Shown in pieces: positions 4,401-7,400 of a DNA stretch of 64,000 nucleotides (position 1 is its first letter; each line of letters starts with the position of its first letter). The stretch lies in assembly GCA_951406725.2 (NCBI GenBank), contig OX597815.1:133734001-133798000 (forward strand), read 5' to 3'. This stretch comes from Octopus vulgaris (lineage: Eukaryota). A program made the position numbers.

Positions 4401-7400
4401 ACTTGCAGTCATTTCTGTACTATATTAAATTTTGAATATAGGTCTGACAAACAGGATAGCTGCTTGTCCAGTCCTTAAGAAGTTCGCTTCAAAACTACTA
4501 GATTCCGGTTTCGATCCCACACTGAGGCATCTCGGGAAAACGTCATTTTGTATAACCTCGTGTTGTCCCATAACTTGTGAGAAAAGCTGGGAAGACGCAA
4601 TTGTATAGAAACTCGCCGAGTGGATTGTACTTGTAATTTGAATGGTTGAGTCTTGTCACATAGATTCAGCTACTTAAACGCTAATTCAGGAACCCTTGAT
4701 TCAGTAGATACCGAACAACTGGAAATCCACCATCATCACAACTCTTCACAGTAAGAAAACAGACATGTCGGCATTGAATCTCATTTACAAGTCACACAAG
4801 TAATAAAACCTTTGCAAGCTATGACCTCTTTTCATCATTTTCACTTAACATTCCAAACAGTCGCAAATTGAGCGGATCTACTTTAATTTTACTAATTAAC
4901 CGGCTTTCTTATAGGATAGGGTGGGAAATTATCTCGTGAGAAAAAAAGAAAAAAAAACACCAACTAATTTCTTTAGATCCGCATGTTTTAAACATCGAAA
5001 ACTATAAATCTGCCCGAGAGAAAATGACCTCCAGTACATATCGGAAGAGACGGCACAGAAGCGACATGCTACGTTAATCTAATTTACAAATAAATTATTG
5101 TTTTTACATTAGTGACTATTAAGATTAATTATACGGAGTTAATATTTTCATAGACATGAGGGCGGCCGAGCTGGCAGAATCGTTAGCACGCCGAGCAAAA
5201 AATGCTTAGCGGTATTTCGTCTGTCTCTGAGTTCAAATTCTGCCAAGGTCGACTTTGCCTTTCATCCTTTCGGGGTCGATATAATCGACTTAATCCGTTT
5301 GTCTGTCCTTGTGTTTGTTCTCTCTATGTTTAGCCCCTTGTGGGTAGTAAAGAAATAGGTATTTCGTCTGCCGCTACGTTTTGAGTTCAAATTCTGCCAA
5401 GGTCGACTTTGCCTTTCATCCTTTCGGGGTCGATTAAATAAGTACCAGTTACGCACTGGGGTCGATATAATCGACTTAAACCGTTTGTCTGTCCTTGTTT
5501 GTCCTTTCTGGGTAGTAAAGAAATAGGTATTTCATCCGTCTTTACGTGTTGAGCTCAAATTTTGCCGAGGTCGACTCTGACTTTCATCCATTTCGACGTT
5601 TATAAAATAAGTACCAGGTGAACACTGAGGTCGTTGTAAACGACTAGTCCCCTCCCTAGAAATTACCGTTTTAGTGCCAAAATTTGAAACCAATATTTCA
5701 CAGCACACCTCAGAAATTTTGTAGACATTGGGGAATTGCACCACATGTGTGGTGTAAATAATACTTTATGAGCTAGAGATTACCAAGACAGAAAAGATCC
5801 CCAAGATTAATTAAATTGACTTATTTACCTTTTATAGTATATTTTATATTTAATTTTTAACTCCCCCACCAAAAAGTTTATTATTTCATTTTTTTTTATG
5901 ACGGGGATCCCCCATTTTCCATGATTATTTTTACTTTTGACTCTTTAATTTTTTTCAATTAATGTTTTAAACATCTGAGATTGTTTTTTTTTTTTAACTA
6001 TGTTTCGCATAAACCCGAAAAAAATTCGGAAAAAGGCAAAACTTGAAATTTGCAGAAAAGTAAAAGTTTCCCGCCGCCTTTTTTTTTTTAAACATATTCA
6101 TAATCTACGATGCTGAAAACATGCAGATCCTAAGAAATTACGGTTTTTTGGCGGCCTAGATAATTTCCGATTCTATTATATGAGAACGCCAGTTAACCTG
6201 ATACATATTTGTGAAGCTTCTAAGCAGGGTATGGAAGGAAAATCTTTTATCACGGCCAACTATCGCAGCTCACCGACAGTGAATCTTGCCTTCAGATATT
6301 TCTCTAAACTTTGAAAAAGTTATCTTACCTTTTTCATCATCATTTTTTAAAATATTTTAATCGGGAGGAAAGGGCAGTGTCCATGATCCTTCACAGGGCC
6401 TCCGAGATTGGTAGAAGCGAGAGGGGAAAGTATCCTCAAACAGGAAACCTGGCTCAAATGGACCCCACTAAAAGCATCAGGTGCCAGGTGGTGATGTTAA
6501 ACAGAGTGATGAGTTAAATCTACTATTTATGTAGGCTGTGGAGGCGCAATGGCCCAGTGGTTAGGGCAGCGGACTCGCGGTCATAGGATCACGGTTTCGA
6601 TTCCCAGACCGGGCGTTGTGAGTGTTTATTGAGCGAAAACACCTTAAGCTCTACGAGGCTCCGGCAGGGGATGGTGGTGATCTCTGCTGTACTCTTTCAC
6701 CACAACTTTCTCTCACTCTTACTTCCTGTTTCTGTTGTACCTGTATTTCAAAGGGCCGGCTTTGTCACTCTCTGTGTCACGCTGAATATCCCCGAGAACT
6801 ACGTTAAGGGTACACGTGTCTGTGGAGTGCTCAGCCACTTACACGTTAATTTCACGAGCAGGCTGTTCCGTTGATTCGGATCAACCGGAACCCTCGTCGT
6901 CGTAACCGACGGAGTGCTTCCATCCATTTATGTAGGCTATAGCGGGATTTGAACTCAGAACTCAAAAGAGTCGGAACAAAATATACCGCCTAGGATTAGT
7001 ACAATTTGTTTTATCGAACCCAAAGGGATGAAAGGCAAAGTTGATCTAAACGGCATTTGAACTCAAGAATAACCATCAAAAAGCATTCTGTCCGTTCCTC
7101 TAACGAGTCGGCCAACTTGCCTCCATGATAGTTGGCAAGTAAAAGTTCGTTAGTAATGCTAATAGCTTGGAAATTTATCTGAATTGCTGAATATAACGAA
7201 TGGGTTAGAAAGAAACTTGCAACGTTGAAGCTCAGATACCAAAGTTTTGTCTACATCATCGGCCATTTGCATTTTAGAACAGTTTAAAGGTCTTTCTTTA
7301 TAATAATTTTAACCACTTCTTTAATTATTAGTATTATAATCTCACTAGTGGCATACGCCTAGCCTTTCTTTGTTATATTAAGGGTGATAAAAAGTGGTAT

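Follow-up and report, generated by a model that had tools for sequence, protein, structure and literature searches.

This report concerns a 64-kb window of Octopus vulgaris DNA (assembly GCA_951406725.2, contig OX597815.1, positions 133,734,001 to 133,798,000 of the forward strand), which is AT-rich, gap-free eukaryotic DNA crowded with copies of one family of tRNA-like short interspersed elements (SINEs). These SINEs end in different 3' tails, and one of them, tail B, is also carried by a long interspersed element (LINE). In the window, most tail-B elements are found at one and the same 12-mer, GTATTTCGTCTG (referred to below as T), inside resident copies of the SINE family. The SINEs that landed on T have left no second SINE head (0/4 events), whereas the LINE that landed on T is flanked by an ordinary 15-bp target-site duplication (TSD) of T (1/1). 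This contrast is the pattern that would be expected if the target strand that lies upstream of where the element inserts anneals to the incoming cDNA and primes the second strand. On balance, it is probable that a target-preferring LINE of the L1/Tx1 group and the tail-B SINE form a pair, and that the 5' junction of the SINE is set by homology between its cDNA and the target.

A full tail-B SINE is 234 nt long. Its head of about 50 nt is followed by T (from model position 51), then by the body and finally by a tail whose last bases are AAATAG. Tail-A SINEs have the head, T and most of the body in common with these copies and end in other tails, A1 or A2. The family presumably resembles the CORE-type SINEs of octopus, in which a tRNA-like head is followed by a CORE-like middle part and a tail of LINE type. 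Within the tRNA-like head, T separates the A-box region from the B-box region. According to folding, T and the head pair in a hairpin of 11-12 bp (at 11972-12000), to which T contributes the 3' arm; the nick site proposed below coincides with the loop/stem border of this hairpin. The motifs resembling the A and B boxes and the hairpin of the head were seen by eye and by folding only (z = -1.6), and neither ARAGORN (0 tRNAs) nor Rfam (0 matches) reported anything in the window. A census of the family was made by running nhmmer over the window with a profile built from four full tail-B copies, and the anatomy of the insertions was derived from this census, from alignments and from a BLAST search of 5161-5695 against the window.

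Eight tail-B 3' ends were found in the profile census, of which five adjoin T, two are off-target and have TSDs, and one is of unclear type. At the five on-target ends (5358, 5526, 12180, 17154 and 32866), position 1 of T follows directly, and all five events are in the orientation of the resident. When both strands are counted, the window has 21 T-like 12-mers with at most 2 mismatches (about 1.6e-4 per position), and about 0.001 T-adjoining tail-B ends would be expected by chance, against the 5/8 observed. By element type, T was hit by 1/1 LINE copy and by 4/7 SINE tail-B ends, a small sample from one region. For Tx1 elements, a target has been called when >20% of the copies are flanked by the same target sequence, as set out in a passage of PMC4494074. 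The observed positions support T as a genuine preferred landing site.

The off-target copies have the marks of ordinary insertions. One of them, overlooked in the earlier note, is truncated at the 5' end and flanked by a perfect 16-bp TSD (9455-9470 and 9509-9524). The other, at 56644-56878, is full-length and sits antisense inside another SINE at a site other than T, with 2-3 filler bases; the earlier note on this DNA had claimed that this copy keeps its whole head and a TSD, and this holds. The start of its TSD agrees with the start of T at 5/6 bases. The TSDs and the 5' truncation on tail-B copies are as predicted by target-primed reverse transcription. For the remaining copy (62-295), the 3' flank was considered as a decayed T, and this was rejected because the likeness lacks significance (in 1389-1997 of 2000 shuffles the score was at least as high).

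Separately, tail B closes with a G, and the six bases that precede it are the reverse complement of T positions 2-7; every tail-B/T junction (e.g. 5353-5366) thus forms a 6+6 inverted repeat. As a consequence, the end of the bottom-strand primer resembles the RNA's own 3' end, and this likeness may bear on site recognition.

The on-target SINE events are found at three loci, and tail-B and resident SINEs can be aligned with each other over head and T. Three of the four events are in register, and one is 7 nt short. The latter is unit 1 of the stack at 5159-5691, where the earlier note had seen one head and three bodies (as 5161-5695); the census and the alignments confirm this arrangement, and neither detected a second or third head in the stack. 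Units 2 and 3 both start at model position 50, each right after a match that ends at position 234 (nhmmer). Unit 1 differs from the tail-B consensus at 5/147 positions and unit 2 at 6/168 (3.4-3.6%). In addition, unit 1 has two deletions, one of 7 nt directly behind T position 14-15 and one of 32 nt in the body, and unit 2 has a 16-nt deletion in tail B. Unit 3, the resident, matches the tail-A consensus at 96/119 positions and other copies at 75-82% identity (BLAST). As units 1 and 2 are near their consensus and unit 3 is diverged, young elements sit inside an old one. The first 14-15 nt of T in unit 1 are of the resident type, a type which one tail-B copy has too. The whole stack is flanked by a decayed 16-mer repeat, probably the old TSD of the resident, with about 14/17 matches and 2 indels, which was aligned by eye and is weak when taken alone. 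It had also been proposed that such insertions preserve the spacing of A box and B box. This is not so in the stack, where the distance from head to B box is 7 nt short.

At the LINE locus (11924-17308), a degraded LINE lies on T of a resident SINE. Domains for an apurinic/apyrimidinic (APE) endonuclease (PF03372, 13837-14289) and a reverse transcriptase (RT; PF00078, 15333-15857) were found together with an ORF1-like frame, and the region between endonuclease and RT matches human L1 ORF2p (E 8e-11). The 28 database homologues of the LINE carry RVT_1 and Exo_endo_phos, and zf-RVT (PF13966) is present in 13/28. Together, the domains, the L1 ORF2p match and the homologues with zf-RVT place the element in the L1/Tx1 group, an assignment made by domains and homologues. 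L1-Tx1 families are also listed for Octopus vulgaris in a recent annotation, in a passage of PMC13282606.

Downstream of a stop codon near 16909, the 3' untranslated region of the LINE runs unbroken into about 50 nt of tail B. This 3' end (17111-17152) matches tail-B model positions 192-232 (nhmmer E 2.5e-4), 38-40/52 positions match five SINE tails, and an AATAAA lies 7-13 nt from the end. A common 3' tail is the standard sign of a LINE-SINE partnership, and by this sign, read from the sequences, the LINE and the tail-B SINE qualify as partners. The segment 17106-17154 is the 3' end of the LINE and not a SINE, which the earlier note had missed. The idea that 17106-17291 is a headless composite of tail B and tail A made by template jumping was dropped, because the 4.9 kb upstream are the LINE with its nested TSDs. 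A second copy of the LINE was not found when it was compared with the window by BLAST.

The inner TSD of this locus (15 bp, T positions 1-15) and the outer one (17 bp) are nested, which indicates that the resident SINE, extending from 11941 to 17291, was struck on T by the LINE. The copies of the outer TSD match at 16/17 positions, and no further copy of the 17-mer occurs in the window at <=2 mismatches. The same resident was also struck on T by a tail-B SINE that left no second head; the single-head pattern that had been noticed at 11942 is present, with one head and tail B at 11941-12180 and T directly after. The LINE on T, with tail B, without homology to the head and with a normal TSD, is the control that the homology idea needs. 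An additional terminal hexamer AAATAG is found at 12175-12180, as if reverse transcription had slipped at initiation.

The third locus (32742-33099, minus strand) shows the same order of one head, tail B and then T, as had been described for 32744-33097. The resident part begins with T and continues into a body that has lost some of its sequence and then into A2b, a variant of tail A, and a TSD-like 14-15-mer is present on both sides of the composite (about 33113-33100 and 32741-32727). The downstream partner is not the same at all loci, since the resident has tail A1 in the stack and A2b at 17291 and 32742, and one of the partners is a LINE. These different residents indicate that tail-B/T junctions arose more than once. 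A headless unit at 42440-42530 was examined as part of the pattern and rejected. This old SINE of tail-A type stops within 3 nt of T, the DNA in front of it is A-rich and not SINE, and the unit was probably truncated at its 5' end in the ordinary way.

Stacking of another kind, in which elements inserted into tails, is found at 56507-57957, where six tail-A SINEs lie head to tail, joined via AT-rich or (ATT)n tails. Five of these units keep their own head, one lacks about 14 nt, and the first is split by the antisense tail-B copy at 56644-56878. Since the units of this array keep their heads, stacking alone does not remove heads.

The origin of the single heads was read from two diagnostic columns in an alignment of the heads in the window. 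In the column GAA[T/A]CG, T is found in 9/9 tail-A heads and A in 4/4 other tail-B heads, and in the second column A is found in 8/9 tail-A heads and G in 4/4 other tail-B heads. The head of the stack has the tail-A state at 2/2 columns. A check of the kind that the earlier note had suggested thus assigns the stack head to the tail-A host lineage, and it does not do so for the heads at 11941 and 33099, which are taken up below. The identity of whole heads to the tail-A consensus was tried as well and gave no separation of lineages (82-92% for all heads), which leaves the two columns as the informative ones.

The mechanism that we propose would proceed as follows. The LINE and the tail-B SINE would both integrate by target-primed reverse transcription at one site of the resident SINEs, with the bottom strand nicked just 5' of T and the top strand cut about 15 nt downstream of this nick. 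With the LINE as cargo, the cDNA would have no match to the DNA upstream, and integration would leave T duplicated in a usual 15-bp TSD. With the tail-B SINE as cargo, the cDNA would carry the complement of head and T, and the upstream target strand (the head and the first ~15 nt of T) could anneal to it in register and prime the second strand inside the cDNA. The incoming head would then be lost or merged and the TSD hidden, and the product would read head, body, tail B, followed by T, body and the old tail. As every hit would recreate T, further hits could build stacks.

The 3' junction may be explained in a similar way. The first run of four T (a stop for RNA polymerase III, Pol III) after the stack head is at 5379-5382, 24 nt into unit 2, and because there is none before it, RNA from an on-target tail-B copy should end in T. 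The AATAAA of the LINE lies so near its end that cleavage would fall in T too. On-target transcripts would thus read into T, and such an extension may help to guide the next insertion, by pairing with the nicked target and setting a precise junction without poly(A). Pairing of an RNA extension with the nicked target has been argued for other target-specific elements, in a passage of PMC4494074 that cites earlier work, and the start of the TSD at 56644 fits this idea.

A further-reaching reading, which we regard as possible and rather doubtful, is that of a self-homing pair, in which the LINE and the SINE land in the very numerous older members of the SINE's own family. One SINE lineage would take over another in a drive-like manner, and the homology-primed joining would render this takeover seamless. 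Each hit would keep the resident Pol III promoter and exchange what is transcribed from it, a dead tail-A copy would be turned into a tail-B source, and the read-through transcript with T at its 3' end would guide the next hit.

Several observations weigh against a 5' junction set by annealing, or limit it. The on-target events are only five, at three loci in one 64-kb window, and the first base of T at their junctions varies (G, G, G, C, A). The final sequence would be the same for annealing at integration and for a later collapse of a 67-bp repeat of head and T. The junction of the stack itself is 7 nt out of register, and this gap could stem from a join by TCT microhomology at the 15-nt stagger or from a deletion that came later. 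The heads at 11941 and 33099 carry tail-B-type bases; they could be the incoming heads, or the resident subfamily could have those bases. The bodies of the A2b residents do have tail-B markers, the window holds no solo A2b copy for comparison, and at these two loci the heteroduplex could be resolved either way. Units 1 and 2 of the stack are the closest pair of tail-B copies in the window. As for the LINE, the zinc motif of zf-RVT was not detected in the degraded window copy, which was placed by domains and homologues. The earlier note had claimed that the cDNA anneals to the upstream target and ends exactly there. This claim is supported in part. In its favour are the site preference, the absence of second heads, the host-lineage head of the stack and the LINE as control; what does not follow from the data is that the head is lost during rather than after integration. 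That annealing takes place during integration is what we infer.

The similarity of units 1 and 2 is the starting point for a local tandem duplication of the T-body-tail-B unit, by slippage or unequal exchange, in which case only the first junction of the stack would be an insertion and the third body would come from the duplication. The two units are adjacent, in the same orientation and match at 124/129 positions (96.1%), while the other 14 pairs reach 89-94.5%. The earlier note had named such closest kinship within a stack, as a mark of local tandem duplication, among the findings that would refute its reading, and it is indeed present; yet the alignment has no column in which units 1 and 2 alone agree on a state, and 0/4 indels are common to them. 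In addition, their T regions differ (position 13 and the 7-nt gap of unit 1), and unequal exchange predicts a hybrid middle, whereas unit 2 is B-type from T position 13 on. A duplication would also not account for the other two loci with their single heads, and for SINEU-3 a passage of PMC4494074 documents successive hits on a target that had been recreated. We consider this duplication unlikely. It is improbable that the head was lost only later, from a two-headed insertion (head, T15, head, T) whose 67-bp direct repeat collapsed, be it through single-strand annealing or through slippage. Repeats this long with ~90% identity can collapse, and the end product would be identical to the one observed; however, the collapse would be needed in 4/4 events with no intermediate caught, at the LINE locus repeats of 15 and 17 bp have persisted, as has the six-unit array at 56507-57957, and unit 2, if inserted downstream of unit 1, would neighbour a tail and not a head, with only 15 nt of repeat left for a collapse.

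Template jumps are known for LINE reverse transcriptases (PMC3774820, in the passage concerned), and the composites could be chimeras from a single event, in which the enzyme jumped from a tail-A RNA to the 3' end of a tail-B RNA, or in which a composite was retrotransposed whole through tail A. The TSD-like repeat around each whole composite and the same tail subtype of both A2b residents agree with this. T positions 1-15 are, however, duplicated around the LINE, for which an insertion accounts and a jump does not; the resident of the stack is A1 and not A2b; in the stack, the young units 1 and 2 lie between a head and a unit 3 that are both old and of the tail-A lineage; and tail B acts as an independent 3' end in two off-target, TSD-flanked copies. 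Such a chimera is thus quite improbable. Ectopic gene conversion, in which breaks in resident SINEs would be repaired from an existing composite and which would spread the block of body B and tail B in the absence of any endonuclease specificity, is very improbable. Homology is present on both sides of the block (head and T, T and body) and the outcome would be single-headed and in register, but the LINE, which lacks flanking homology, is found at the same nucleotide with a TSD, and the TSD-flanked off-target copies are tail B mobilised by reverse transcription. The 3' junctions also vary (G, C or A, and the extra hexamer at 12175-12180), pointing to separate priming.

Parts of the annealing reading have precedents in other systems, and the papers are cited here for the passages that bear on them. 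In crocodilians, Tx1-Mar LINEs and SINEU SINEs have one target in a Mariner transposon, with tandem insertions (Kojima 2015, PMC4494074). As in Tx1-Mar/SINEU-3, an L1/Tx1-group LINE and a SINE have one preferred site inside another repeat in octopus, and repeated hits lead to tandem SINEs. The partnership of Tx1-Mar and SINEU-3 was inferred from the common target, whereas here the common 3' tail is seen directly. Their target is an unrelated DNA transposon, and complete tandem copies sandwich a visible TSD, in contrast to the octopus pair, in which the target lies in the SINE's own family, the copies are headless and the TSD is hidden.

For R2, it has been described that a cDNA with upstream target sequence gives uniform, precise 5' junctions and that the junctions are variable otherwise (Eickbush et al. 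2013, PMC3774820). In the R2 model for RNA that retains upstream 28S sequence, a heteroduplex primes the second strand, and this model is backed by injection experiments (PMC3774820). The octopus pair is similar in that the cargo has homology in its 5' part to the DNA that lies upstream of the nick and in that, within small numbers, precise junctions go with this homology (3/4 on-target SINEs in register). It differs in that R2 has a restriction-like endonuclease, a 28S rDNA target and upstream homology from a ribozyme-cut co-transcript, whereas the octopus pair has an APE-type endonuclease, a SINE target and homology from the SINE's own promoter-bearing head, which is dropped. In the annealing type of LINE 5' joining, the cDNA anneals to the 3' overhang that results from second-strand cleavage (Yamaguchi et al. 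2014, PMC4245944). The length of the TSD is typical of the LINE, with 15 bp for L1 and also 15 bp here. The few bases of microhomology described there contrast with up to ~65 nt of true homology in the octopus pair.

Target-specific Tx1-group LINEs with target-sharing SINEs and tandem hits, as well as homology-primed 5' junctions, are known. What appears to be new is a target inside the SINE's own family and a cargo head that serves as the homology and is dropped, for which nothing was found in openly available papers. No report of a LINE or SINE that targets a site inside a SINE of its own family was found in the open full texts, a set that leaves Repbase Reports and the supplements of PMC4494074 outside. 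The octopus SINEs OR1/OR2 were reportedly described by Ohshima and Okada in 1994. The octopus CORE-SINE is named as OR2 in PMC4758252 and as OR1 in PMC4824008.

If the pattern holds genome-wide, the same machinery acting at the same nucleotide would have two 5' outcomes that depend only on whether the cargo matches the DNA upstream. This would bear on second-strand priming, the least understood step of LINE integration, which has so far been argued mainly from R2. One SINE lineage could in this way replace another by capturing its promoters, and loci that have been hit may become tail-B sources. It would also show the origin of headless SINE stacks, which are possible seeds of satellites and which repeat annotators would mis-call as new composite families. 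The features discussed here are listed in Table 1.

Table 1. Features of the tail-B insertions, their residents and the LINE in the 64-kb window
Feature	Position	Strand	Basis or remark
Full-length tail-B SINE, insertion type unclear	62-295	-	no TSD visible
Resident tail-A SINE of the stack: old TSD, probable 5' copy	5141-5156	.	by eye
Single head of the stack, tRNA-like, A-box region, tail-A lineage	5159-5211	+	diagnostic bases
Unit 1: T, body, tail B	5212-5358	+	alignment
Unit 2: from T position 1, body, tail B; no head	5359-5526	+	alignment, model positions 50-234
Unit 3: resident's T, diverged body, tail A; old	5527-5691	+	model start 50
Probable 3' copy of the resident's TSD (stack)	5692-5707	.	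by eye
Off-target 5'-truncated tail-B insertion, 38 nt	9471-9508	+	nhmmer E 6e-5
Outer TSD of the resident SINE at the LINE locus, 5' copy, 17 bp	11924-11940	.	adjoins SINE end
Single head at the LINE locus	11941-11990	+	alignment
Tail-B SINE unit (T, body, tail B) and extra AAATAG	11991-12180	+	alignment
TSD of the LINE, 5' copy, 15 bp (T positions 1-15, resident type)	12181-12195	+	13/15 vs 17155-17169
Degraded LINE, placed in the L1/Tx1 group	12196-17154	+	ORF1, APE endonuclease, RT; several frameshifts
Resident T (3' TSD copy), body with deletions, A2b tail	17155-17291	+	model start 52
Outer TSD, 3' copy	17292-17308	.	adjoins SINE end
On-target composite	32742-33099	-	head 33099-33050; tail-B unit 33049-32866; resident 32865-32742
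Off-target full-length tail-B SINE, own head	56644-56878	-	census, 11-12-bp TSD

Other repeats of the window were noticed during the analysis. Two tail-A1 copies (4214-4349 and the one with the TSD at 5692-5707) have TSDs that both start with AATATT, which hints at a site preference also for the partner LINE of tail A. Long (TA)n-rich arrays of 0.4-0.9 kb are present at 23656-24578 and 49349-49789 and give spurious long open reading frames in all frames. In addition, a second, unrelated SINE-like family was recognised, by eye only, from heads at 1-50 (minus strand) and about 61465-61520 (plus strand).

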